Positions 1,669 to 13,574 of a stretch of 24,000 nucleotides of DNA are shown one piece after another. The translations under genes were made by a program, and so were the position numbers. Under the pieces are notes generated by a model, which worked only from the letters and a program-made list of their open reading frames with translations, did no database searches and was not told the DNA's origin. Every line of letters starts with the position of its first letter. The first letter of the stretch is position 1. Source of the stretch: an uncultured Mollicutes bacterium (lineage in GTDB: Bacteria; Bacillota_I; Bacilli_A; Acholeplasmatales; Anaeroplasmataceae); contig CAMWKG010000030.1 of NCBI GenBank assembly GCA_947174785.1, forward strand, positions 1 through 24,000. Reading direction: 5' to 3'.

Positions 1669-4254
1669 TTATCGTTTATCATCATTTTTAAATAGCTCTG
1701 AATAAACACAGATTAATAAGGATAGACCTAAACAAATAACTAGATTTGTTGGACTTAATGGAGTAAATTTAAAAAGAGTATTTACGCCTGGACAATATAC
1801 CACAACAAATTGTAAAACAAGACCAATAAAAATTGCAAAATTCAAGAAATGATTTTTATAGCTTTCAATAGAAAATAAAGAATGCTTTGATTTTACATTG
1901 TAAGCATGAAGCAATTGAGATGTAGATAGAGTAAAGAATGCCATGGTTTGACCAAGCATATGAGAATGTTCAAGGAAATGACCAATGGCATATGCAGCAG
2001 TAGCGCATATACCTATGATAAGACCTTCAATAAAAATTTGTATAGACATATGATGGGCAAAAAAACCTTCTTTTTTGGCTCTTGGTTGTTCTTCCATAAT
2101 GCTATCCTCTACTTCTTCCATTCCTATACCAAAGGCAGGCAATGAATCAGTAATCAAATTGATCCACAATAAATGAATTGGTAAAAGCGGAACTCCCATA
2201 GAAATGTTAGTTAATGCAGAAAGCAATGATGCAAAAAATATAACAAATACTTCACCTATGTTAGATGACAGCAAATACTTTACGCACTTTTTTATATTAT
2301 CATAAATACCTCTTCCCTGTTTTACAGCAGAAACAATAGTGCTAAAATTATCATCAACTAGAATCATATCTGCAGCTTCCTTAGAAACATCTGTTCCTGT
2401 AATCCCCATTGCACAACCGATATCAGCTTTTTTCAAAGCAGGTGCATCATTAACACCATCCCCTGTCATCGCTACGATGGCATCTTTTTTTTGCCACGCT
2501 TCTACAATACGAACCTTATCCTTAGGAGCAACTCTTGCAAAGACACTATATTCTTCTATGGTGTCTTTTAATTTCTCATCACTTATTTTATCTAGTTCTG
2601 TTGCAGTAATAGCTTTATGCTTTTCATCTAATATGCCTAATTCTTTAGCAATTGCAGTTGCGGTGGTAATATGATCTCCTGTAACCATAACCGTGCGAAT
2701 GCCTGCAGTGCTTGCAATCTTTATTGCTTCCTTTACCTCTGGCCTTGCTGGATCCATCATACCGACCAAGCCTAAGAATTCTATTTTCTTTTCTAGCATA
2801 GATTCACTAGGCTTTGAAGAAAACCTTTGTACGCCTAAGGCTAAAACACGAAGAGCATCCTTAGCTAAATATTCATTGGCTCTTTTCGCTTTATTCTTTT
2901 CTTCTAAAAAATTTGTAGAGTGTTCAATAATCACATCAAATGCACCCTTGGTTATTGCCAGATAGCTTCCATTTTTCTTGATAACTGTTGTCATCATTTT
3001 GCGGTCACTATCAAAGGGAAGTTCAAATACTTTATTTATATTATCTAATGGATTCCCATAGGTATGATTTGCTTCTAATAATGCTATTTCAGTAGGATCT
3101 CCAATTGCTCCATTTTTTTCGAGTGTTGCATCACAACAAATTGCAAAGTATTCCAAAAGATCTTTTTCTTTTTTGTTTAAATATTTCAAGCTCTTTATTT
3201 CATCACAATACAACTTCTGAACAATCATTTTATTCTGAGTAAGTGTTCCTGTTTTATCAGAACAAATCACACTGCAAGAGCCTAATGTTTCTACAGCAGG
3301 CAGTCTTTTCACGATGGCATTTCTTTTGCTCATCTTCCCCACACCAATAGCTAGAACGATAGTTACTACAGTAGCTAGCCCTTCTGGTATTGCAGCCACC
3401 GCTAAAGCAATTGCTGTTTTAAAACAATCTACCCATACTTTAGATAAAATAGAGCCATTTTTCCATTCAGCAATCATTTCTAAAATAAAAACAAGTGCAC
3501 AGATGATTAGGGCCATAATTCCTATAACCTTACCAACTGAGGAAAGCTTATGCTGAAGTGGTGTAGTGGCATCTATCTGTTCATTTAACATGCCTGCAAT
3601 CTTTCCCATTTCCGTATTCATTCCAACTTGAGTAACTAAAACCTTAGCTTTACCACTTGTAATATATGTAGAGGAAAATACACAGTTTTTTTGATCTCCT
3701 AAGGATATCGCCTCATTTTGAAGAGAGCCTTCACTTTTATGTACGGGCAAGGATTCACCAGTCAAGGCAGATTCATCGACAGCTAAGCTGTAGCTTTCAA
3801 TAATTCTTGCATCAGCAGAAATATGGTCTCCCGCTTCTATGAGCATAATATCTCCAACAACAAGCTCTTCGGAAGGAATTTCAATTGTATGCCCATCACG
3901 GATGACCTTGCTTGTAGGAGAGGACATTTTCTTTAATGCCTCTAAGCTACGCTCCGCTTTTGTCTCTTGAACAACACCCAAAATAGAATTGAAAAAGACC
4001 ACCACTAAAATGATGATACTGTCAACATATTCATTTGGATCTAAAATAACAGAAATAATGGCAGAAGCCATAAGAATTAAAATTAAGCTATCCTTAAAGC
4101 TTTTTAAGAACTTCACAAATATATTGGTTTTTTTCTTTTCTTTAATCTTATTTTCACCATAAGATTTTCGATTCTTCGTAACACTGATTGTATTTAATCC
4201 ATTAGAAATACTCGTTCCATATTCTTTTACTAATTCATCTATCTGTTTTTGCAT
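1669..4254 (-). CDS. P-type (type IIA-like) Ca2+-transporting ATPase
   Basis: 861 aa with hallmark motifs: TGES (LTGESLPV), the phosphorylation site CSDKTGTLT, PEGL (AAIPEGLATV) and the hinge MTGDGVNDAPALKKADIG, plus about 10 TM helices. An AGGAGG RBS (4259-4264, complement) lies 4 nt upstream of the ATG. Confidence 0.93.
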   Translation of the reverse strand: MQKQIDELVKEYGTSISNGLNTISVTKNRKSYGENKIKEKKKTNIFVKFLKSFKDSLILILMASAIISVILDPNEYVDSIIILVVVFFNSILGVVQETKAERSLEALKKMSSPTSKVIRDGHTIEIPSEELVVGDIMLIEAGDHISADARIIESYSLAVDESALTGESLPVHKSEGSLQNEAISLGDQKNCVFSSTYITSGKAKVLVTQVGMNTEMGKIAGMLNEQIDATTPLQHKLSSVGKVIGIMALIICALVFILEMIAEWKNGSILSKVWVDCFKTAIALAVAAIPEGLATVVTIVLAIGVGKMSKRNAIVKRLPAVETLGSCSVICSDKTGTLTQNKMIVQKLYCDEIKSLKYLNKKEKDLLEYFAICCDATLEKNGAIGDPTEIALLEANHTYGNPLDNINKVFELPFDSDRKMMTTVIKKNGSYLAITKGAFDVIIEHSTNFLEEKNKAKRANEYLAKDALRVLALGVQRFSSKPSESMLEKKIEFLGLVGMMDPARPEVKEAIKIASTAGIRTVMVTGDHITTATAIAKELGILDEKHKAITATELDKISDEKLKDTIEEYSVFARVAPKDKVRIVEAWQKKDAIVAMTGDGVNDAPALKKADIGCAMGITGTDVSKEAADMILVDDNFSTIVSAVKQGRGIYDNIKKCVKYLLSSNIGEVFVIFFASLLSALTNISMGVPLLPIHLLWINLITDSLPAFGIGMEEVEDSIMEEQPRAKKEGFFAHHMSIQIFIEGLIIGICATAAYAIGHFLEHSHMLGQTMAFFTLSTSQLLHAYNVKSKHSLFSIESYKNHFLNFAIFIGLVLQFVVVYCPGVNTLFKFTPLSPTNLVICLGLSLLICVYSELFKNDDKR

Positions 4255-4269
4255 AGTTCCTCCTTTAAG

Positions 4270-4305
4270 AAAAAAAGCCCTTATTCAAACCACCTTGAAT
4301 AGGGC
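4270..4305 (-). terminator. Rho-independent terminator downstream of glmS
   Basis: On the minus strand GCCCTATTCAA / loop GGTGGT / TTGAATAAGGGC (one bulged A) is followed by TTTTTTT (plus-strand A-run 4270-4276). It lies 51 nt after the glmS stop. The T-tract ends 3 nt before the ATPase RBS. Confidence 0.75.
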
Positions 4306-4356
4306 ATTCCTATTACTATTATATTTTATAAAAATATCCTTTGTTTTAGAACATTT

Positions 4357-6132
4357 TTATTCAACCGTTACACTCTTCGCAAGATTTTTTGGCTTATCCA
4401 CATCATTTTCTTTTAACACTGCCGCATAATAAGCAATCAGCTGAACCACTAATACACTGACTAAAGGAGATAAATAATGAGCGACATTCGGTATTATAAT
4501 ATCATCACTAGGTGTAGATAAGCTCTTAGAAGCAATGACATAGGTTTTGGCTCCACGAGATGCAGTTTCTTCTAGATTACTTCTCGTGATGCGATTTGTC
4601 CCTTCCTGAGTTATGATTGCAATCACAGGTGTATTTTTAGTAATTAAGGCAATAGGCCCATGCTTAAGCTCGCCCGAAGAAAATGCTTCTGTATGAATAT
4701 AAGCAATTTCCTTAAGCTTTAAAGAAGCCTCTAACGCAGTCCAGTAATCTATACCTCTACCAATATAAAATAAGTCCTCTTGATCTATGATAGCTTTTGC
4801 GATACCCTTGCATACCTCTTTGTTCTCAAGCACCTTTTCCATTGCTAAACTTACAGCCTTTAAATTATTCTTTAAATTTGTTTTTGTCTTACTTACCGCT
4901 CTTGCAAGAATTGCTGAAGTAACAAGCATGGCAGTATAAGCCTTTGTAGATGCAACTGCAATTTCCTTTCCTGCATAAATATTTAAATAATAATCGGACA
5001 ATCTTACCATACTGGATTCAATCGTATTTGTAATGGTAAGAATGAGATGCTTTTGTCTCTTTACCTTTTTCATAACTGCAATTAAATCCGCTGTTTCTCC
5101 ACTTTGAGAAAAAAAGATAAAGAATGGTCGTTTCGATATTAAAGGTGTTGAATATACAAGCTCTGAAGCACAAAACACCTCACAAGGTATGCCACAAAGC
5201 TTTTCAAAATAGTATTTCGCAAAATACGAAGCAAACATTGAAGACCCACAGGCTACAAAGTTAATTTTATCGCTTTGCCTAATCTGATGTATTAGCTTTG
5301 GAGAAATGTTTACTTCTTCTCCAGAAAAATAATGATGTATTAAATTCCGAATCATCATCGGCTGTTCATAAATCTCCTTTAGCATAAAATGCTCATAGGT
5401 TTGTTTATCAATTTCTTCTTTTTGAATAGCAATTTTTTGAAATTTGTTCTCAATAGATAATCCTATCATATCCTGTAAATAAATATCCTCAGAATCAATG
5501 ATTCCAAATGTTTTATCTTCTAATGGCATATATTCTTCTGCATAATCCATTAAACCTGTAATGTCTGAAGAAAAGGAAATACCTTCTTTTCCTTTTCCAA
5601 CTAGAAGTGGACTTTTATCCTTCATACAATAAATATGGTTTGGATGTTCTTTATCTATAACTAAGCATGCATAAGAGCCTTCTATCAAGCTCATTGTTTT
5701 ACGTATGGCCTCTTCTACACTTAAAGTAGTGGAAAAATATTCGATTAAATCTGCAATGATTTCTGTGTCTGTATCACTCGAAAATCTAAAGTTTGCCAGA
5801 TATTCAAATTTCAACTTTTGATAATTTTCTACAATTCCATTATGAACGATGACAAACCGTCCATTCATAGAACAGTGAGGATGTGCATTTCTTTTATTTG
5901 GTTCTCCATGTGTAGCCCACCGTGTATGTCCAATAGCTAAGCAAGAATCAACATCCATAATGCATTTCTTTAAATCAAATACTCTGCCTTTTTCTTTACA
6001 AATCTTTATGTCATTATCTATTTTATATGCAACACCTGCTGAATCGTATCCCCGATATTCTAGTTTTGTAAGTCCCTCTATTACCGCCTCTAAAGCATTA
6101 AACTTGCCAATATACCCAACAATTCCACACAT
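4357..6132 (-). CDS. glmS: Glutamine--fructose-6-phosphate aminotransferase (isomerizing)
   Basis: The N-terminal MCGIVGY (catalytic Cys2 of class II amidotransferases) sets the start at the internal ATG 6132, preceded by the GGGAGAGG RBS, rather than the ORF-track start 6147. Two SIS domains are present and the C-terminus is the canonical KSVTVE. Confidence 0.95.
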   Translation of the reverse strand: MCGIVGYIGKFNALEAVIEGLTKLEYRGYDSAGVAYKIDNDIKICKEKGRVFDLKKCIMDVDSCLAIGHTRWATHGEPNKRNAHPHCSMNGRFVIVHNGIVENYQKLKFEYLANFRFSSDTDTEIIADLIEYFSTTLSVEEAIRKTMSLIEGSYACLVIDKEHPNHIYCMKDKSPLLVGKGKEGISFSSDITGLMDYAEEYMPLEDKTFGIIDSEDIYLQDMIGLSIENKFQKIAIQKEEIDKQTYEHFMLKEIYEQPMMIRNLIHHYFSGEEVNISPKLIHQIRQSDKINFVACGSSMFASYFAKYYFEKLCGIPCEVFCASELVYSTPLISKRPFFIFFSQSGETADLIAVMKKVKRQKHLILTITNTIESSMVRLSDYYLNIYAGKEIAVASTKAYTAMLVTSAILARAVSKTKTNLKNNLKAVSLAMEKVLENKEVCKGIAKAIIDQEDLFYIGRGIDYWTALEASLKLKEIAYIHTEAFSSGELKHGPIALITKNTPVIAIITQEGTNRITRSNLEETASRGAKTYVIASKSLSTPSDDIIIPNVAHYLSPLVSVLVVQLIAYYAAVLKENDVDKPKNLAKSVTVE

Positions 6133-6289
6133 TTTTACCTCTCCCATAAACCAATAGTACTTTAATACTTATTATTTTAAACTAAGTATTATGCCTATTT
6201 TAATATATGAAAGAATGCTATATTTTGAGACAGATATAGTAACTCTCTTTATAAAACAAAAAGTTCACTTTATAATTATTCTGCATTTA

Positions 6290-6317
6290 TTGACTTTTTT
6301 TGTGTTTGTGATAAAAT
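6290..6317 (+). promoter_or_regulatory. SigA-type promoter with extended -10 (TTGACT - 16 nt - TGaTAAAAT)
   Basis: TTGACT lies at 6290-6295, TG at 6309-6310 and TAAAAT at 6312-6317. It points away from glmS toward the structured region at 6330-6425. Confidence 0.5.
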
Positions 6318-6323
6318 ATAATT

Positions 6324-6433
6324 AATAAAGAATTAGACATTAGGTAGTGATATGTCCAACTACGCCTTTCGCCTTGCATTAGCAGGGAGGGAAACTCCAG
6401 AATGGACTCTGGAAATGTCTAATTCTTTTTTTT
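6324..6433 (+). ncRNA. Candidate structured small RNA (family not recognised)
   Basis: It lies between the promoter above and a T-tract (6426-6433, continuing to 6440). A perfect 12-bp closing stem GAATTAGACATT (6330-6341) / AATGTCTAATTC (6414-6425), extendable to 15 bp, encloses three short hairpins: GTAGT/ACTAC at 6344-6363, CCTTGC/GCAGGG at 6372-6387 and TCCAGA/TCTGGA at 6396-6413. There is no plausible ORF on this strand. The 5' end is inferred from the promoter, not observed. Confidence 0.4.
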
Positions 6434-6811
6434 ATTTTTTATTGTCATATATCTTGCTGAAATAATAGATGTTTTTTTTAAAACATTACTAGAAAACTTT
6501 ACAGTGATATATAAATAGGAATGTTCATCCAATATCTTAATAAGATTTCTAGTATCATTGTAGGTTTTATCTAATTTTATAAAATCGGGATTGTTTACAT
6601 AATCCATAAGATATGGAATATACTGTTTCATTTCAGGATGTCTTTTTAGAATATGATTTTCACGTTCTTTAGTCAGCACAATGATAGGATTATAACTTTT
6701 TATTTCTTTAGAATAATCATATGCTATCTTACCAACATATGCAAATTTATCTTTTATTGCTTTTTCAGAATTTTTAGTACTCCCCAATTTACTCTTAGAC
6801 TCCTTATACAA
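6419..6811 (-). CDS. Small hypothetical protein with a possible Barnase/EndoU/ColicinE5-D/RelE-like (PBECR-type) nuclease fold
   Basis: 130-aa ORF. The segment IIVLTKERENHILKRHPEMKQYIPYLMDYVNNPDFI resembles, from memory, the HxxxH-containing N-terminal core of phage/plasmid PBECR nuclease domains. The start is uncertain: the ORF-track start is TTG (6811) without an RBS, and an AAGGAG lies 12 nt upstream of a second in-frame TTG (codon 9). Confidence 0.45.
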   Translation of the reverse strand: MYKESKSKLGSTKNSEKAIKDKFAYVGKIAYDYSKEIKSYNPIIVLTKERENHILKRHPEMKQYIPYLMDYVNNPDFIKLDKTYNDTRNLIKILDEHSYLYITVKFSSNVLKKTSIISARYMTIKNKKKN

Positions 6812-6977: not shown

Positions 6978-7002
6978 AAAAAAGGAACTTATGCTAGTTC
7001 CT
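6978..7002 (-). terminator. Rho-independent terminator overlapping the stop codon of the 220-aa gene
   Basis: The minus strand reads AGGAACT / AGCATA / AGTTCCT followed by TTTTTT (plus-strand A-run 6978-6983). It ends the unit containing the 169-aa and 220-aa genes, and possibly the whole four-gene unit. Confidence 0.65.
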
Positions 7003-7651
7003 CTTTTTCGGTTTCTAAAGCTGTTAATTTTAAATCGTCTTTCATCGTTTCGTATAGTTCACTAAAGTCTTCTGTAGGCTCAATGTAATTAGGACACGTG
7101 ATTTTATGTTCCTCAACATATAAACCACTATAATATACATTATTCCCTTGAAGATTAAAATCAGGTAGTTTTCTTAAAGTATCCTCATCATAATCATAAA
7201 AAATTTCAAAGCCTATAAACTTCTTACATTTTTCTAAAGATCTATTCGGAGAAGATTTGTTTTCTTTTTCTTCTTCTTGGTTGAAATATTTTTCACAGTT
7301 GCGAACTAAAACAATTTTAAATGCATTAGTGCCATCCACCTTAAGATAACTCACACCGTATGGAGTTACTCTTGGCTTATAGCCCTTCTTTTTTAAATTT
7401 TCATCCATATCCAGAGTTGGATACTGATAAGACATCGTTGGATAGTTTTTAGGCTTTGGTTTATAGCGAAAGCTTTTTACAGAAGCCATTTGAATTGCGA
7501 TAGTCATATAAATAAATACTATTGCAATTAATACAATAAATACCTGTGTCCAAGCACCCTTAGTTTGCGTTACTCCAATAATTAATCCAATCGCTATCAA
7601 AAAGCTAACTGCTACACTAATCCATATATATCTAGCCTTTATATTTTTCAT
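6989..7651 (-). CDS. Hypothetical membrane-anchored protein (2 N-terminal TM helices); paralog of the upstream 169-aa protein
   Basis: 220 aa. TM helices are YIWISVAVSFLIAIGLIIGV and WTQVFIVLIAIVFIYMTIAIQMA. Residues about 106-205 align collinearly by eye with residues about 55-155 of the 7655..8164 product. Its start lies 3 nt after the upstream stop. Confidence 0.7.
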   Translation of the reverse strand: MKNIKARYIWISVAVSFLIAIGLIIGVTQTKGAWTQVFIVLIAIVFIYMTIAIQMASVKSFRYKPKPKNYPTMSYQYPTLDMDENLKKKGYKPRVTPYGVSYLKVDGTNAFKIVLVRNCEKYFNQEEEKENKSSPNRSLEKCKKFIGFEIFYDYDEDTLRKLPDFNLQGNNVYYSGLYVEEHKITCPNYIEPTEDFSELYETMKDDLKLTALETEKEELA

Positions 7652-7654
7652 AGA

Positions 7655-8164
7655 TTACCTCATTTCTATATCAATTGCACCTAAATCAAATACTATAGCT
7701 TCTACATAATGTGCATATAAAGAATAGAAGCTAGGAACAGGACGATAGTATTTTAAACGAATCTTTTGTGCATCATATACAAAGGTTTGATTAAATTCTT
7801 TCTTTGTATTCACAACAGACTCCTTAGCAATCCTTACGGTTTCTTCATTATTATTTTTAAACACAATCAAATGAATAACTGCTTTGTGCTCTTCTGTTAT
7901 AATCGCATCAATTTTATCCTTTAAAGCTTCATAATTATATTGTTCCTTTACGAAGTCTTTTTCGTTATCAACAAAAGTAAATACAAAAAGAGTAGACTTA
8001 TAAAGTCTTGTAAAAACTCTAACAAATTCATTTCTTATAACCAATTCATCTTTTGCATACGTCATATTAGACTCAAAATAATGATAGGGTTTAATCTCAT
8101 AATATCCTAAACAATCTAGGACTTCCTTTGGTTTTTTCTTAAAAAAATTGAACATAGCCATCAC
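7655..8164 (-). CDS. Hypothetical soluble protein; paralog of the downstream 220-aa protein
   Basis: 169-aa ORF with no TM segment and no motif I recognise. Possible starts are GTG 8164, ATG 8161 and ATG 8155. The last has the best spacing (8 nt) from an AAGAG Shine-Dalgarno-like element. Confidence 0.65.
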   Translation of the reverse strand: MMAMFNFFKKKPKEVLDCLGYYEIKPYHYFESNMTYAKDELVIRNEFVRVFTRLYKSTLFVFTFVDNEKDFVKEQYNYEALKDKIDAIITEEHKAVIHLIVFKNNNEETVRIAKESVVNTKKEFNQTFVYDAQKIRLKYYRPVPSFYSLYAHYVEAIVFDLGAIDIEMR

Positions 8165-8179
8165 TCTTTTCTATTTTGT

Positions 8180-8208
8180 ATTATACTTATTTTATTATAG
8201 CTTGTCAA
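8180..8208 (-). promoter_or_regulatory. Perfect consensus SigA promoter TTGACA - 17 nt - TATAAT
   Basis: On the minus strand TTGACA is the complement of 8203-8208 and TATAAT the complement of 8180-8185, with an exactly 17-nt spacer. It sits in the 50-nt gap between the McrC-like gene and the 169-aa gene. Confidence 0.6.
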
Positions 8209-8214
8209 AAGAAA

Positions 8215-9777
8215 TCAATGCACTTGATTACAATAAGGACAAAGAATCTCCATATCCTCTGTAATATCAGTTATATTTCTAAAATACATCTGAGCCTCTA
8301 GCTTTCGTTTCACGAGCCAAGCATCTCCTTCTATTCTAGACTTAGTAAGATTTGCAATTTGTGTATAGTGATATGTTTTTTTATGATTAGAACAATATCC
8401 ATATTTTATTACAGTTCTACAAGAAGTGCACTCATACGTTGGTTGATTCGGGCGAGAAAGCTCTGTGTTCACAATCAACGAATGATTACAAAATGGACAA
8501 TCCTCCCTTTTATTATCCGCATAAATCATACCACGTAAAAGAATTTGCTGAATTCTTCTAAAGGATTCTATACTTGTCATACTAATTTCGATACTATTCT
8601 TTACGTCCTCAAAAGGGCTGAAAATAATATATTCATCTGCTTCCTCTTGTTTTTGAATCTTTTGAAGCATTTCTTCGGTTTCTTTTTCAATTGTTGGAAT
8701 AATAAGTATTCTATATTTTGTATCCTTTTCTAAATCTAGTCGCAACAAAGAATACTCCTTCAGTTTTTTAGAAGAAAACTTAAGCTTCCATTTTTTGAAC
8801 TCAAAATTCATACTGAATCTAGAAAACGAAATTTCTTTTTCTTTGTCACAGACAAAATTAAAATGCCCAATAGAAAAGATAGATAGTATTATGCAAAACT
8901 GAATATAGTTTTTTTGTAAGGCCACTCGATCAACCTCTTCAAATTCCTTTTCATTTCCAATGTGATGAAGAGAAAAGTATTTAGAAAGCTTATAGATTTG
9001 ATGATAATCCTTATGCATAGACAAAATATTTGTTTTATGTGCCTTTAAATTCTTTGGTCTAGTTTTATTATTTTTGTACACAGGGCGTTTTAGTCTAGGC
9101 ACAAGGGTATTCATAATATATTGAAGCTTATTCAAGCATCGAATAGATACCCCATAGTAGGAATCAAAATTACGACTATAACCTGTGTGGAGCTTTCCTA
9201 AAGCTAAGAAATAATTCAAATGATTGACACGCTCTAATAAATTAATTTCAATGGTTTGATTTGTATAAATCAATTCTTGTATTATTCTTAAATTACTTCT
9301 TGTAAAGCCTAATATATCATCAACCGTTTTACAAAAGAACAAATTTTCATAAATGCCATAATTATCCTCATAGGTTCTAGTAAGAAGCTTAATAGGTTTA
9401 ATCTCATTTTCTTTCACATCAGACCAAAGCTCGCTATGGGAAGAAATATGCTGTATCGTATTGTTATTAATAATTCTTACAGACTCTGTAGGCAGTATCA
9501 CATTTTGTTCCTTAAGGTGAATAAACGGCTTAGCAAAGATTTGCTTAATTGCTGGAATTGTTTTTATGATAGCATTGATGTCTTCTTCTAAAGAATCAAA
9601 ATTCAAATCTGGATCTACAGTAAAAAGTGTCAAATCATGAACTACTGCATAATCAAGTGCAACATAAGAAAGCTTCTTATTGACTTTCATAAAATCTTCT
9701 AGCTTGTCATAATACTCGGTTAGTTTATAAAGCTCTGCCTGTTCTTCATAAGTTAACTCCATAGGCCTAATCCTCAT
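8215..9777 (-). CDS. McrC-like partner protein with C-terminal zinc ribbons (nuclease status unresolved)
   Basis: 520-aa ORF whose ATG overlaps the upstream gene's last codons (11-nt overlap). An alternative start at ATG 9762 has a GAGGA RBS 8 nt upstream and lies 4 nt after the upstream TAG. The N-terminal region contains TYEDNYGIYENLFFCKTVDDIL, reminiscent of the (P)EN-hydrophobic motif of McrC/DUF2357 N-domains. The C-terminus has CPFC(427-430)...CTSC(450-453) and CPYC(513-516)..H520. Its position immediately downstream of a McrB-like gene supports the assignment. Confidence 0.5.
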   Translation of the reverse strand: MRIRPMELTYEEQAELYKLTEYYDKLEDFMKVNKKLSYVALDYAVVHDLTLFTVDPDLNFDSLEEDINAIIKTIPAIKQIFAKPFIHLKEQNVILPTESVRIINNNTIQHISSHSELWSDVKENEIKPIKLLTRTYEDNYGIYENLFFCKTVDDILGFTRSNLRIIQELIYTNQTIEINLLERVNHLNYFLALGKLHTGYSRNFDSYYGVSIRCLNKLQYIMNTLVPRLKRPVYKNNKTRPKNLKAHKTNILSMHKDYHQIYKLSKYFSLHHIGNEKEFEEVDRVALQKNYIQFCIILSIFSIGHFNFVCDKEKEISFSRFSMNFEFKKWKLKFSSKKLKEYSLLRLDLEKDTKYRILIIPTIEKETEEMLQKIQKQEEADEYIIFSPFEDVKNSIEISMTSIESFRRIQQILLRGMIYADNKREDCPFCNHSLIVNTELSRPNQPTYECTSCRTVIKYGYCSNHKKTYHYTQIANLTKSRIEGDAWLVKRKLEAQMYFRNITDITEDMEILCPYCNQVH

Positions 9778-12442
9778 TTAGCTTACGAACAAAAGCACTA
9801 CAAGCAGTTAATCCTAGCTTGTCAAATTCTACCGCTAATGCTTCCTTATTTTCAACAATCTTATATTCTAGCTTGCTGACAACTTTGCTCAATACTATTT
9901 TTTCTACCGCATCCTTAAGTACAGCATCCTTATCACCAAAGCATGCACAATAGATTTTAACGAAATCCTCCATTTGTTTTAGGATACGGTTACCAAATGA
10001 AATATTGTATGGAGCTAAAAGCTTTTCTACCTTCTGAATGATTTTATCATCCTCTGCTTCAAAGGAGTAGCTTTCTTTTGCCTCTGCAAATAGCTTTGCA
10101 ATAAGATCATAGGTTACAAATCTTTGATCTAGTGGCTCACTAAAGGAATGTATTTTAGGAGCACGCTTATTGAAGTTCATGGTCTGTGCTCTATCGTAGA
10201 CCTTATCACTAATCTCAAAAGTACTTTCATCACGGTTTGCAGTTCCTATAAACCAAACATTTGTAGGGATTTCTATTGTGTGTCCCTCTGTTAAGCCATA
10301 ATAGGAAAGCTGTTCATGATTTAATGTACGATATAATTTTATATTCAATAGCTTAATTTTTCGCATATGCTCTTCATGTTCCATTAAAGAAAGAAAATCA
10401 GAAAAATAATATTCTATTCTACTTAAATTCATTTCATCTAGAACAATGAATGTTGGAACCTCGGCATTTAATCTAGCCTTATATAAGCACTGTGTAAATT
10501 TCTTTGGAGTAAAGCATTTACTGAATTCATTATAATATCCTAAAAGCTCATTTTTGTCTCTCCAAGAAGATTCTACTTCAACAACTTCACAATTTCCCAT
10601 AATGGCTTCAGCAAAGATTTTTGGTAGGCTTGTTTTACCTGTACCACTCATACCCTGAAGAATAGTGAGCCTAGAAGCTCCTAATCCTGCAACGAAGGTA
10701 GCTATATCCTCTAGAGAATAGGATAGATGTAGCCTGGACTCTCTTGCATAGTCTACAACAAAGCGAACCAAATTAGGTAATGTTAAATTCTCAAACAAGT
10801 GTGCTCTTCTATTTTCTAGCTCGGATTTAAATATCTCTAATTTAGAATCTAATTCTGTAAATGCAGGGCATGCATCAAAGTCAAATTCTACTGTTGGCTC
10901 ATCTAAAATTGGTTTACTCTTTTTATCTCTACCAGAACCAAAGGCTGAACCTATATAATTCTTCTCATCTTCTGTCTTATAATTTAACTGACCACGAACA
11001 ATCATTAAAATTAATACAACAAGGCTTGCCAAGAAAACATATATCATTTGACTATATATTTTATATTTATAGGTCTCTATAAATGCAATATTGTAATATT
11101 CTAATAAGCTTTTTATGTTATCCTCATTTATTTTTTGAGCGATTTTAAAGTAAAATCCATAAAGGCCTAAAAGAAGCATAAATATAACATTTGCAAAAGC
11201 ACTTACCTTTACAACTCTATAATAATCCTTATATCTTGCAAAAAAGCTTACAATCGTTAAAACAAGTAAAATACCAGAGATAAGCAAAAATGCAAACAAC
11301 GCAAATGCCAATCCTTGATATCCACCACTTAAATTCTGATAAGTGGTTAAAAGCTTAAATCCATTTAAAACAACATCACTTTTTAAAAGACCTATAGAAG
11401 CATGAATTTCAATAATATTAAAGAATAAGGAGGTTAAGGTTATGCAAGTGAGCACTGCAACAAAAATAAGTGGTTCAAGCTTAAATGTATTCTCCTTTTC
11501 CACCCTGTCATCCTCTTCAAACTCTATACCTATTTTTCCCTGAATAACAGAAAAAGCAATATAAAGTACAACCATCAAGAGAATTGGTATAAAAGAGATT
11601 GTACTTGCTGCTCCACCCTTGATTTTGGTGTAGAAGGTCATGAAATATCCAACTAAAAAGAAAACTAAAGAAATAGAAATATTACCAATAATAGCTAATT
11701 TAGATTTTCTAATGTATTCCTTGTCAGATTTATAATAATATGGGAATATTGATATTAGATATAATAGACTACTTAAAAATGCCAAGAAGAAAACTATAAA
11801 GAAAACATATATGACTACAGATGTATTCGTGCCCATAGCACTTATAAGAAAATAACTTGTTGTCTTTCTTAATTCTTCTGTTACATAAACTGGAATAAAA
11901 AAGATTGTAAATAAAATACCGAGACTTGCCCACTCAAAAATAAGTAATATACGTTTATAAAGCTTGATGTTATGAAGCTGCTCTTTTGTTATCTTTTCCT
12001 CTTTAACTTCTTCTTTCATGATTCTAGTATAAATCAAATATACAAAGCCAACGATAGAAATCAATATAGAAAATACTAAACAAGCAATTGCTCCTCCTCC
12101 CAGCATCTTATAACGAAAATGCACAAATAGTATAAATAAGCTTAATAATAAGTTAAAAGGAATAAGAACATAAAAGCCAAGCTTTTTCTTTTTTATAAAA
12201 AATAAAGCGACTCCTATTGCCGATAAAATAATATCCAAAATAAATAATGCAATAAAGGCTACACAAAAATAACTCCCTACGGGACGATTCGTATAAAATG
12301 AAGCCGTTCCCCAAATAGATGCCCCCTTATATCTACCTATCAATCCTAAAGAATAAGCTATTAATGTGAAAAATAAATGAAAGAAACTCGTGGATAATAA
12401 AACCGCTGTTTCACCAAGTCGAGATTCAAAAAATTTTTTCAT
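9767..12442 (-). CDS. Polytopic membrane protein fused to a McrB-family AAA+ GTPase domain
   Basis: The C-terminal part is collinear with E. coli McrB motor motifs as I recall them. LTILQGMSGTGKT matches NIILQGPPGCGKT (Walker A, nt 10631-10654). VEVESSWRDKNELLGYYNEF matches VQFHQSYSYEDFIQGYRP. TFIVLDEMNLSRIEYYFSDFLSLMEHE matches IFIIDEINRANLSKVFGEVMMLMEHD (Walker B, nt 10424-10450). NVWFIGTANRDESTFEISDKVYDRAQTMNF matches [28 protein letters not shown]. ORF residues about 17-487 contain about 12 hydrophobic helices. I prefer the start at ATG 12442 (GGGGGTG 6 nt upstream) over ATG 12457, which has no RBS. Confidence 0.8.
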   Translation of the reverse strand: MKKFFESRLGETAVLLSTSFFHLFFTLIAYSLGLIGRYKGASIWGTASFYTNRPVGSYFCVAFIALFILDIILSAIGVALFFIKKKKLGFYVLIPFNLLLSLFILFVHFRYKMLGGGAIACLVFSILISIVGFVYLIYTRIMKEEVKEEKITKEQLHNIKLYKRILLIFEWASLGILFTIFFIPVYVTEELRKTTSYFLISAMGTNTSVVIYVFFIVFFLAFLSSLLYLISIFPYYYKSDKEYIRKSKLAIIGNISISLVFFLVGYFMTFYTKIKGGAASTISFIPILLMVVLYIAFSVIQGKIGIEFEEDDRVEKENTFKLEPLIFVAVLTCITLTSLFFNIIEIHASIGLLKSDVVLNGFKLLTTYQNLSGGYQGLAFALFAFLLISGILLVLTIVSFFARYKDYYRVVKVSAFANVIFMLLLGLYGFYFKIAQKINEDNIKSLLEYYNIAFIETYKYKIYSQMIYVFLASLVVLILMIVRGQLNYKTEDEKNYIGSAFGSGRDKKSKPILDEPTVEFDFDACPAFTELDSKLEIFKSELENRRAHLFENLTLPNLVRFVVDYARESRLHLSYSLEDIATFVAGLGASRLTILQGMSGTGKTSLPKIFAEAIMGNCEVVEVESSWRDKNELLGYYNEFSKCFTPKKFTQCLYKARLNAEVPTFIVLDEMNLSRIEYYFSDFLSLMEHEEHMRKIKLLNIKLYRTLNHEQLSYYGLTEGHTIEIPTNVWFIGTANRDESTFEISDKVYDRAQTMNFNKRAPKIHSFSEPLDQRFVTYDLIAKLFAEAKESYSFEAEDDKIIQKVEKLLAPYNISFGNRILKQMEDFVKIYCACFGDKDAVLKDAVEKIVLSKVVSKLEYKIVENKEALAVEFDKLGLTACSAFVRKLNED

Positions 12443-12466
12443 ATCCCACACCCCCATAATACTATA

Positions 12467-12495
12467 ATTATACCCATTTTAAATGTCAAAGTCAA
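12467..12495 (-). promoter_or_regulatory. SigA-type promoter TTGACT - 17 nt - TATAAT for the membrane McrB-like gene
   Basis: On the minus strand TTGACT is the complement of 12490-12495 and TATAAT the complement of 12467-12472. This implies a very short leader before the RBS. Confidence 0.5.
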
Positions 12496-12524
12496 AAACT
12501 ATTCCCACTTATTTAGTAAGTCCC

Positions 12525-12553
12525 TTGTATTTTTCTTTCTTTTTTCATATAAT
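12525..12553 (+). promoter_or_regulatory. SigA-type promoter TTGTAT - 17 nt - TATAAT for the LD-carboxypeptidase-like gene
   Basis: TTGTAT lies at 12525-12530 and TATAAT at 12548-12553. It is divergent from the promoter above. Confidence 0.45.
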
Positions 12554-12578
12554 AGCCATAACTAGGAGGTATTTTAGT

Positions 12579-13574
12579 ATGCAACCAACCTTTATTCATA
12601 AAAAATCAAAGCTTTATTTTGTGGCACCATCCTTTGGGTGTACCACATCTCCATATGAAGAAAGATTGCATAAAGCAATTCAACAATTAGAAAGCTTAGG
12701 ACATGAAGTAGTCGTAGGACCTAATTGCTTTTTAGCTGAAGGAAAATGTGCTTCTAACACACCAGAGCTAAGAGCTAAGGAATTTATGGAGGCCTATAAA
12801 AGTGATGCCGATTGCATCCTTTCAGTCGGTGGGGGAGAAATGATGTATGAAATATTAGATTATATTGATTTTGAACAAATCAAAAAGCTTCCTCCAAAAT
12901 GGTTTGTTGGGTTTTCAGACAATACCAATCTCACATTTACATTAACTACACTTTGTGATGTAGAAACTATATATGGAGCTTGTGCAGGGCACTTCCACTT
13001 TAAAAAATATACCTATGATGTTTTAGATACCTATGAAATGTTAAAGGGGAGAAAAGAATTTAAAGGGTATCCAAAATATGAATCTCCCCAAGAAAAGTTA
13101 GACCCTTTTGCAAATTACAATTTAGATACAAAAAAAGTGATTACCCCTTATAATTATAAGGAGCCTTTCTCTGGAACTATTTTAGGAGGTAATCTTGATA
13201 TTATGCAATTACTTTGTGGAACACCTTATGATAAGGTTAAGGACTATACCTCCAAGCATACAGATGGAATCATCTTTTATCTTGAAGCATGTGATTTAAA
13301 TGTTGTAGGCATTAAAAGAGCACTTCTTCAGCTAAAACGTTCTGGGTGGTTTAACAATATAAAAGGCTTCCTTGTTGGAAGACCTCTATGTATTGGTAGT
13401 GAATTTGCAGGTGTAGATCATATTAATGCAGTAGTTGACGTATTAAAAGATTATGATGTGCCTATTCTATTAGATATAGATTTAGGACACATTGCCCCAA
13501 CGCTCCCCTTTAGAAATGGCGCTTATGCCACAGTAGAATACAAAAAAAATAATATCTTCATTACTTACAAGTAA
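12579..13574 (+). CDS. Peptidase S66 family protein (LD-carboxypeptidase / MccF-like)
   Basis: The start is moved to ATG 12579 (MQPTFIHKK...), preceded by AGGAGG at 12564-12569. The ORF-track N-terminal 32 aa overlap the promoter. The protein has the Ser-nucleophile motif VGFSDNTNL, and the later E and H (YLEACD, DLGHIAPTLPF) fit the S66 Ser-His-Glu triad. Confidence 0.8.
   Translation: MQPTFIHKKSKLYFVAPSFGCTTSPYEERLHKAIQQLESLGHEVVVGPNCFLAEGKCASNTPELRAKEFMEAYKSDADCILSVGGGEMMYEILDYIDFEQIKKLPPKWFVGFSDNTNLTFTLTTLCDVETIYGACAGHFHFKKYTYDVLDTYEMLKGRKEFKGYPKYESPQEKLDPFANYNLDTKKVITPYNYKEPFSGTILGGNLDIMQLLCGTPYDKVKDYTSKHTDGIIFYLEACDLNVVGIKRALLQLKRSGWFNNIKGFLVGRPLCIGSEFAGVDHINAVVDVLKDYDVPILLDIDLGHIAPTLPFRNGAYATVEYKKNNIFITYK

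Follow-up and report, generated by a model that had tools for sequence, protein, structure and literature searches.

A probable membrane-anchored, apparently nuclease-free variant of CoCoNuT-type McrBC encoded by two adjacent genes of an uncultured Anaeroplasmataceae bacterium

We analysed a 24,000-nucleotide stretch of DNA (the window; positions 1 to 24,000 of contig CAMWKG010000030.1, assembly GCA_947174785.1) from an uncultured Mollicutes bacterium of the Anaeroplasmataceae, in which two adjacent genes, here called A and B, encode a polytopic membrane protein with a cytoplasmic AAA+ module and a smaller zinc-ribbon protein. An original prediction, made from the letters of the window alone, had described the two as a candidate membrane-anchored McrBC-type system, and both minus-strand open reading frames (ORFs) lie where it had placed them (Table 1). 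We conclude that the pair is a membrane-anchored, apparently nuclease-free variant of CoCoNuT-type McrBC, for which no earlier description was found. That the two genes form a translationally coupled operon, derived from the NxD clade of this machinery and anchored in the membrane, is in our judgement quite likely, and its core, a GTPase ring plus an activator, is well supported. Residues of A are numbered below on its 896-residue form and those of B on its 515-residue form.

The assignment of A concerns its cytoplasmic 370 residues, which are 56-91% identical across 76 species and contain long invariant runs. Besides the motifs listed in Table 1, they carry SLMEH at residues 690-694 and VYDRA at residues 753-757. 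In a Pfam scan A reaches only AAA_5, and that marginally (23.1 bits vs a cut-off of 22), while E. coli McrB is the sole AAA+ protein of the Protein Data Bank (PDB) that it matches (E 0.018 with phmmer; E 0.009 with the family profile). By hhalign, A aligns with E. coli McrB at 96.7% probability (E 4.6e-10, 250 columns), and the A family aligns with the CnuB protein of a Rhodoferax plasmid at 100% (E 3e-43, residues 519-874), the second alignment running from the pre-AAA CP-x-F/L motif through the C-terminal helical domain. Judged from these alignments, the collinearity of motifs between A and McrB is beyond chance. A MoxR/RavA-type ATPase was considered as well and rejected, since E. coli RavA gives only 1.5% in hhalign, over a spurious stretch of 15 residues. 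The original prediction had thus chosen correctly in likening the ATPase core to McrB rather than to MoxR/RavA.

Its list of McrB motifs requires one correction. Walker A, Walker B with its LMEH tail and VYDRA are found at the places it gave, but the sensor motif is of the type NxD+E and not NxxD. The N, D and E of this signature are invariant in the A family, the NxxD of McrB being shortened by one residue. Related A clusters number 8,201 at 50% identity, and our census of motifs and transmembrane (TM) helices covers the best 150 representatives; nearly all motif-positive clusters among these read GTANxD[ED]ST, with rare substitutions. NxxD minus one residue, usually with E or D next, is the mark of the NxD branch of McrB-like GTPases, which are typically fused to coiled coils (Bell et al. 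2024, PMC11090510). Profile and motif comparisons together show the cytoplasmic part of A to be a CnuB/McrB-like AAA+ NTPase of this clade. In the suggested check of the locus against PADLOC, A matches the candidate model PDC-M26A (E 1.2e-50), and for B no model is reached at E values of up to 1.

For B, the relevant comparisons pass through intermediate proteins. Its best-conserved stretches (HSELW, IKP-KLL, YEDNYGIYEN, NHLNYFLALGKLH-GY and KTNIL) all lie within residues 57-309, and it is over these residues that hhalign aligns the B family with two RefSeq DUF2357 proteins encoded beside plasmid CnuB, at 96.6% and 97.4% probability. Pfam DUF2357 maps within the B-aligned stretch of both plasmid proteins. 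The YEN motif (Y138-E139-N140), which had been noted in the original prediction as resembling that of McrC/DUF2357 proteins, is invariant in 78 species and is aligned with the same motif in DUF2357 proteins recognised by Pfam. We seeded a scan of metagenomes with the coiled-coil protein most closely related to A and obtained 43 loci; in 39 of them the B-family hidden Markov model (HMM) matches a gene for about 690 amino acids (aa) directly downstream of the coiled-coil ATPase (E 1e-24 to 6e-48), and BLAST clustering finds the same partner in 42. The homology falls into three blocks (B 37-165, 231-310 and 376-516), the last of which covers the zinc-ribbon end (independent E-value 8e-14). In the two plasmid DUF2357 proteins, the C-terminal half gave no alignment with B; in the metagenome partners it did. 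B is about 175 aa shorter than the metagenome partner, with about 160 residues missing between the second and third blocks. Given these profile links to plasmid and metagenome DUF2357 partners, we regard B as a shortened CnuC/McrC-type partner. The McrC-type N-domain that had been proposed for it is therefore recovered via intermediates, although direct comparisons failed.

Between the DUF2357-like region and the C-terminus of B lies an alpha/beta domain, for which AlphaFold2 (AF2) gives the topology beta-meander, alpha, beta, alpha at a predicted local distance difference test score (pLDDT) of 86-97. On its modelled fold, this domain may be a remnant of PD-(D/E)xK. No invariant D...(D/E)xK triad is present in B across 78 species, E377 being the sole invariant acid in residues 300-420, and a Foldseek search of the PDB with the B model returned no significant match and no nuclease. 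As far as its conserved residues tell, B is apparently nuclease-free. Its C-terminal module bears out the zinc ribbon of the original prediction, with three CxxC pairs (CPFC, CTSC and CPYC), seven Cys that are invariant in 78 species and a terminal H515 present in 90-97% of sequences. Seventy positions of B are conserved at 97% or above.

Several points weigh against the proposed assignment and are best considered together. The Pfam scan of B does not reach DUF2357 directly; in Pfam, NCBIfam and PADLOC, B gives weak zinc-ribbon matches only, and sequence and profile searches of the PDB add nothing else. Compared with E. coli McrC, hhalign gives 0.2%, that is, no similarity, so that the link between B and McrC is transitive and runs via the DUF2357 partners of the coiled-coil relatives. 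In these intermediate proteins, too, the Pfam DUF2357 match is marginal (19.8-26.3 bits vs a cut-off of 23.3). An unconventional active site in B is conceivable, its N-terminal half holding many invariant His, Glu and Asp. Residues 80-260, the most conserved part of B, are also the least confident in its model (pLDDT 50-57); the combination of high conservation and low model confidence over residues ~75-250 would be consistent with a segment that takes up its fold on the GTPase, itself just as conserved. Finally, no NxD-type McrB has been characterised biochemically so far (PMC11090510), and for this reason a preference for GTP and stimulation by the partner are assumptions.

The N-terminal part of A sets it apart from the coiled-coil relatives. 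The roughly 12-helix membrane domain seen in the original prediction is found by a Kyte-Doolittle scan, which gives 12 hydrophobic helices in residues 17-487, and again by the AF2 model of A (21 homologues, mean pLDDT 75.6), in which the same 12 helices appear at high confidence together with three short beta elements on the extracellular side. A predicted N-in/C-in topology with a cytoplasmic ATPase fits the distribution of K+R in the loops (32 predicted inside vs 15 outside). The membrane domain is poorly conserved, with 21-54% identity and P184 and G361 as its only invariant residues, and family scans assign it no Pfam or NCBIfam domain. A nucleic-acid (modified-base) reader domain was not found at the N-terminus of A, where the polytopic membrane domain stands instead. 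The linker that follows TM12 is unaligned, low-complexity and acidic/Ser-rich, and residues 490-519 have pLDDT <50 in the model. A disordered linker and a freely evolving membrane domain suggest that the membrane part is an anchor or localiser and not a gate rigidly coupled to the motor.

Of the best 150 among the 8,201 related clusters, 76 have 5-13 TM helices and score highest as a block, so that the A family comprises about 76 clusters at 50% identity; in most of the others the N-terminus is a highly charged coiled coil. The charged fraction of the N-terminal part is 0.15-0.26 in the TM forms vs 0.39-0.53 in the coiled-coil relatives. Helix counts among the A family representatives (P0153-P0228) cluster near 11-13, 7-9 and 4-6, and the beta hairpins of the A model sit in alternate outside loops. 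Foldseek against the PDB gave nothing significant for A (top MCM3 E 0.016, LetA E 0.28, TARP/claudin E 4); its weak matches include the four-helix TARP/claudin fold (TM-score 0.52 on the target) and the lipid-transport protein LetA. The helix-count clusters, the alternate-loop hairpins and these weak matches suggest that the 12 helices are three tandem 4-TM modules; hhalign between the thirds of the domain, at 5-36% probability, did not detect the three repeats. Two further kinds of relative were encountered. P0032 (L008 8001-10028), a distant 675-aa relative of A with 36% identity over 22% of the query, is solitary, with no same-strand partner and metabolic neighbours. P0280, P0284, P0289 and P0293-P0298 are NxD(D) GTPases of 400-660 aa with 1-4 predicted TM helices in a short N-terminus, and may belong to CoCoPALM, with its FtsB-like anchor, or represent yet another variant linked to the membrane.

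The two genes had been predicted to be conserved neighbours, and they are. When species genomes were scanned with the B family, which comprises 485 clusters at 90% identity, 115 of them proved to hold relatives, and the best 80 loci were examined. In 76 of these, the gene immediately 5' of B, in the same orientation, is an A homologue, and the two genes are spaced by -41 to +13 nt; the remaining four loci end before the expected position of A, and the pairing thus holds in 76 of 76 testable species genomes. Identity across species is 56-91% for the GTPase domain of A and 38-77% for B. The hosts among these best 80 are, on the one hand, Anaeroplasmataceae, Acholeplasma-, Izemoplasma-, Mariniplasma- and Haloplasma-like bacteria and genomes labelled "Tenericutes" and, on the other, gut metagenome-assembled genomes (MAGs) labelled Clostridia or Christensenellaceae. 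Beyond A and B, no gene is conserved across the 80 loci, the next commonest family occurring in 11, and no helicase, nuclease or kinase travels with the pair across the loci compared. Loci inspected individually elsewhere show the same two-gene unit among unrelated housekeeping genes.

By analogy with E. coli McrBC, six A subunits would form a GTPase ring just beneath the membrane, and the DUF2357 stalk of B would enter this ring and stimulate nucleotide hydrolysis; the solved McrBC complexes, as summarised in PMC11090510, are the model for both ring and stalk insertion. The two zinc ribbons of B could then hold a substrate, probably nucleic acid. The output of the pair, on the same analogy, would be the holding, moving or remodelling of this substrate at the membrane, driven by nucleoside triphosphate (NTP), and not its cleavage.

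The genomic residency of the pair bears on what such an output might serve. We compared 150 nearest-neighbour proteins from its loci with PADLOC and found sporadic matches only (one DRT3 pair, one SoFic and a few generic ones) within a housekeeping mix; nuclease families are absent from the top families matched by these flanking proteins. The guanine-plus-cytosine (GC) content of the pair tracks that of its flanks (r = 0.97 over 23-58% GC, mean difference -0.5%). A scan of IMG/VR with the B family found no relative, and 72,556 plasmids contained no close relative of A, the best match being 36-39% identical. Housekeeping flanks, matching GC, no viral copy and no close plasmid relative suggest a long-resident chromosomal module and not a mobile defence island. 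The defence-island location that the original prediction had proposed to look for is hence absent, which keeps a non-defence role alive. B from genomes labelled Christensenellaceae is 52-57% identical to B of Anaeroplasmataceae, as against 39-43% for the Acholeplasma/Izemoplasma copies, and this closeness suggests some past transfer between gut lineages.

As to the role of the pair, an immune or exclusion function inherited from a defence ancestry is the one to which we lean, a little short of calling it probable; a stably inherited, exapted housekeeping function is a serious but lesser possibility, and the rest is left to other roles. The pair might be an active anti-phage or anti-plasmid system with the membrane domain as effector, an account we hold to be doubtful in this specific form. 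B would sense infection and the GTPase ring would fire, whereupon an assembly of 72 helices would open or disorder the membrane (abortive infection), or else the complex would block the entry of nucleic acid. Every detectable relative of the pair is a McrBC/CoCoNuT-type conflict system, PDC-M26A is itself a PADLOC candidate and, in a pair with no nuclease, the membrane domain is the sole candidate effector; the Christensenellaceae identities hint at horizontal transfer, genes of toxin/immunity type follow the pair in the window and in locus L004, and one locus stands beside DRT3. Yet only a handful of the 150 neighbours match PADLOC, among flanking genes of the housekeeping kind; across 76 species the layout stays the same and accessory genes are not shuffled; and both the conservation of the GTPase over hosts of such different GC and its fully ameliorated composition are unusual for arms-race genes. 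The variable linker of ~30 residues between motor and membrane domain argues against tight mechanical gating, and the membrane domain is almost without conserved polar residues.

Much of this evidence would suit a McrBC-type ring that has been exapted as a housekeeping machine for a membrane task in Mollicutes-like Bacilli and Christensenellales, such as nucleic-acid handling in DNA uptake, segregation or division, or membrane-linked quality control of RNA or protein; we treat this as possible, if tentative. The distribution is taxonomically coherent and identity drops with taxonomic distance, the GTPase is under very strong purifying selection, GC tracks the host, the neighbours are housekeeping genes, viral contigs and plasmids hold no close copy and all nucleases have been lost. 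There is also synteny within families, with the LD-carboxypeptidase gene and the 169-aa and 220-aa neighbours recurring in 6-7 Anaeroplasmataceae loci, and the NxD clade already has a membrane- and pilus-linked, possibly non-immune branch in CoCoPALM (PMC11090510). Against it, the flanks differ between families, the 115 species are a raw count and not a fraction of host-clade genomes, and well-known cultured Acholeplasma species and phytoplasmas are absent among the best 80 of the 115. Moreover, a housekeeping role is not known for any member of the McrB clade. In its boldest version, which we consider rather unlikely, the McrBC ring and activator would have been stripped of nucleases, fixed in the membrane, inherited vertically and exapted for a non-immune cell function, its carriers being Acholeplasmatales-, Izemoplasmatales- and Anaeroplasmataceae-like Bacilli and Christensenellales. 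Two other accounts were rejected. A generic AAA_5/MoxR-type remodeller beside an unrelated zinc-finger protein would explain why AAA_5 is the only direct Pfam match of A and why B has no direct family match, but it is contradicted by the RavA, McrB and CnuB comparisons, by the invariant NxD and by the homology of B to DUF2357 partners, and we hold it to be very improbable. More improbable still is that the pair is a remnant, itself in decay, of a larger CoCoNuT operon and does nothing by itself: the helicase, 535-aa gene and kinase/phosphatase of the nearest relatives are indeed missing and B is shortened, but in 76 species the two ORFs stand undamaged and side by side, at the identities given above, 70 positions of B are nearly fixed, and in the window a separate promoter-like site precedes the two genes, whose spacing hints at translational coupling. 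The conservation data contradict it.

Table 1. Coordinates of genes A and B, their parts and neighbouring features in the window
Feature	Coordinates	Strand	Description
Gene A, longest ORF	9767..12457	minus	896 aa
Gene A, likely start	9767..12442	minus	891 aa; membrane-anchored CnuB/McrB-like NxD GTPase
Polytopic membrane domain of A	10997..12409	minus	residues 17-487; ~12 predicted TM helices, three short extracellular beta elements
Linker from TM12 to cytoplasmic module of A	10877..10996	minus	variable sequence and length, predicted disordered
Cytoplasmic module of A	9767..10876	minus	D-x-CP-x-F-x-x-x-D pre-AAA motif, McrB-like AAA+ core, C-terminal helical domain; including stop codon
Walker A GMSGTGKT	10631..10654	minus	residues 602-609; invariant
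Walker B FIVLDE	10433..10450	minus	residues 670-675; followed by MNLSRIEYYFSDFLSLMEH, aligned with McrB DEINRANLSKVFGEVMMLMEH
GTANRDE, NxD+E signature	10226..10246	minus	residues 738-744; shortened NxxD
Gene B, longest ORF	8215..9777	minus	520 aa
Gene B, likely start	8215..9762	minus	515 aa; minimal CnuC/McrC-like partner
DUF2357-like (McrC N-terminal) region of B	8836..9594	minus	residues 57-309
Alpha/beta domain of B	8506..8835	minus	residues 310-419
C-terminal zinc-ribbon module of B	8218..8505	minus	C422/C425/C445/C448, then C457/C508/C511 and H515
Promoter-like site upstream of gene A	12467..12495	minus	TTGACT-17 nt-TATAAT, 11/12 consensus positions
Small gene downstream of B	7655..8164	minus	169 aa
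Second small gene downstream of B	6989..7651	minus	220 aa
Small ORF	6419-6811	minus	130 aa, TTG start
glmS	4357-6147	minus	
LD-carboxypeptidase gene	12483-13574	plus	Peptidase_S66, E 2e-30

The likely starts of A and B are the sixth codons of their ORFs, both ATG, because Shine-Dalgarno (SD)-like sequences precede them (GGGGGTG 5' of the A ATG and GAGGA 5' of the B ATG) and because the NCBI homologues of A and B have 891 and 515 aa. The closest database match to A, P0001 from an Anaeroplasmataceae MAG, is 891 aa long and 100% identical. From its likely start, B begins 4 nt past the TAG of A, in agreement with one of the two arrangements given in the original prediction, and its SD sequence lies within the final codons of A; this spacing suggests translational coupling. 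The site upstream of A is a putative promoter, read as such from its consensus match and its location near the start of A. A perfect-consensus sigma-70 site (TTGACA-17 nt-TATAAT) lies at 8208-8180, separating B from the two small genes beyond it, past which comes a terminator-like hairpin at 7007-6978. With a promoter-like site before A and a separate one after B, the two genes look like a transcription unit of their own. The other genes of the window are ordinary chromosomal ones: glmS, a P-type ATPase, ABC/FtsX transporters, a two-component system, HlyIII, LysRS and the LD-carboxypeptidase.

The two small genes directly downstream of B (region 6989-8208) recur at this place only in the seven closest relatives. 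The 169-aa protein has a weak match to Imm64, an immunity protein (E 0.004); hydrophobic helices are found at the N-terminus of the 220-aa protein. The 130-aa ORF beyond them matches PBECR2 (E 1.5e-6; 28.9 bits vs a cut-off of 27.1) and PBECR3 (E 6.8e-7), toxin-type nuclease domains of the barnase/EndoU/colicin-E5/RelE-like group, and with the Imm64-like gene it may form a short toxin/immunity cassette that separates the pair from glmS. In the Christensenellaceae-like loci L004 (10332-17501), L005 and L006, the pair is followed by a leucine-rich-repeat protein and several PT-HINT polymorphic-toxin cassettes with DUF3885. The presence of toxin/immunity-type genes just downstream of B in this second lineage may be a coincidence or a weak sign of a conflict-system neighbourhood. 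The DRT3 pair that adjoins one locus (Drt3b E 1.7e-111, Drt3a E 4.5e-53) and the SoFic that adjoins another (E 6.6e-44) are the only clear defence neighbours among the 150 flanking proteins. It should also be noted that the Anaeroplasmataceae, as which this genome is labelled, are classically held to be without a cell wall, and that it encodes the LD-carboxypeptidase and glmS. The ORF start of the LD-carboxypeptidase is probably too early, as homologues begin near an internal Met-33.

McrBC is the textbook GTP-driven restriction enzyme, and its CoCoNuT relatives are a large branch that is predicted only. The present pair is the simplest NxD-clade system so far, with two genes, no accessory factors and apparently no nuclease, and it offers a clean entry point to what an NxD GTPase ring and its DUF2357 partner do alone. 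The fusion to a membrane domain raises two possibilities, immunity at the membrane without cutting, or a restriction motor recruited for ordinary cell biology; should the second be true, the McrB clade would have in this pair its first member with a housekeeping role. The hosts concerned are reduced-genome, Mollicutes-like bacteria and abundant gut Clostridia, and either answer would widen the roles of the McrB family. Two widespread 'hypothetical' protein families of gut metagenomes also gain names.

Compared with E. coli McrBC (a type IV restriction enzyme; structures 6HZ4, 6UT6 and 7VSR), the pair shares an AAA+ core that is collinear in Walker A, Walker B, LMEH tail and sensor motif, a two-gene operon with the GTPase first and, by transitive homology, a partner with a DUF2357-type N-domain. 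It differs in having NxD for NxxD, in its membrane integration and in lacking a DNA-reading N-domain, while B has neither sequence similarity to McrC nor a PD-DxK triad. The layout of A resembles that of FtsK/SpoIIIE, which likewise join a polytopic anchor through a long low-complexity linker to a hexameric NTPase ring at the membrane. This is a functional analogy and no homology is claimed, as FtsK/SpoIIIE belong to the FtsK/HerA family and not to AAA+ McrB, and they have no McrC-like partner. Only the GTPase part of A is covered by the match to PADLOC PDC-M26A. In the coiled-coil relatives the match takes in more of the model and extends into its N-terminal half; the papers searched contain none that names PDC-M26.

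CoCoPALM has been named, but not analysed, as an NxD GTPase with an FtsB-like anchor of transmembrane and coiled-coil helices and a link to signal-peptidase/pilus genes (PMC11090510). As in A, the GTPase of the NxD clade is attached to the membrane there; going by that description, A differs in its ~12 helices, in having no coiled coil and in the absence of a conserved third gene. Among the papers searched, the name CoCoPALM occurs in the CoCoNuT paper alone. The original prediction could assign the architecture to no characterised type IV restriction system, and we likewise met with no account of the 12-helix form in Pfam, NCBIfam, PADLOC or the papers searched; neither a polytopic fusion nor these host taxa are mentioned in the CoCoNuT paper (PMC11090510) and two of its supplementary files.

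The CoCoNuT systems themselves (CnuB/CnuC, Type II / III-A) are a computational prediction only (Bell, Sahakyan, Makarova, Wolf & Koonin, eLife 2024, PMC11090510), and McrC-type nucleases are often inactivated in the CoCoNuT/NxD branch (PMC11090510). The operons of the plasmid relatives, with a kinase, a superfamily 1 (SF1) helicase, a ~489-aa protein, an AAA ATPase and a DUF2357 protein, have the CoCoNuT layout; those of the metagenome relatives consist, in this order, of PP2C, a Ser/Thr kinase, an SF1 helicase, a 535-aa gene, CnuB and CnuC (DUF2357). In one of the latter (L096), the SF1 helicase upstream of the coiled-coil CnuB (1779-4928) matches PADLOC Mokosh MkoA (E 1.9e-99) and the 535-aa protein (4882-6489) gives a weak match to MkoB (E 1.2e-6); by these matches, the CnuH/CnuE-like genes of metagenome CoCoNuT-like operons are indicated to be related to Mokosh components. 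Unlike CoCoNuTs, which have an N-terminal coiled coil and lie on plasmids or islands, A carries ~12 membrane helices followed by a flexible linker, B is shorter than its counterparts, and the pair stands in a chromosomal housekeeping context without CnuH helicase, CnuE/HEPN or other nuclease, or TerY-P kinase/phosphatase. Among strict CoCoNuT features, the coiled coil and the tandem nucleases are missing and the CPxC zinc-ribbon partner is present. With CnuB, A has in common the NxD+E signature, the pre-AAA motif, the AAA+ core and the C-terminal helical domain; the DUF2357 region and CPxC zinc-ribbon end of CnuC are homologous to B; and in both systems the GTPase gene lies upstream, with tight or overlapping junctions. 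Taken together, these comparisons of sequence and gene order identify CoCoNuT CnuB/CnuC, and not the classical type IV enzymes, as the nearest known systems.

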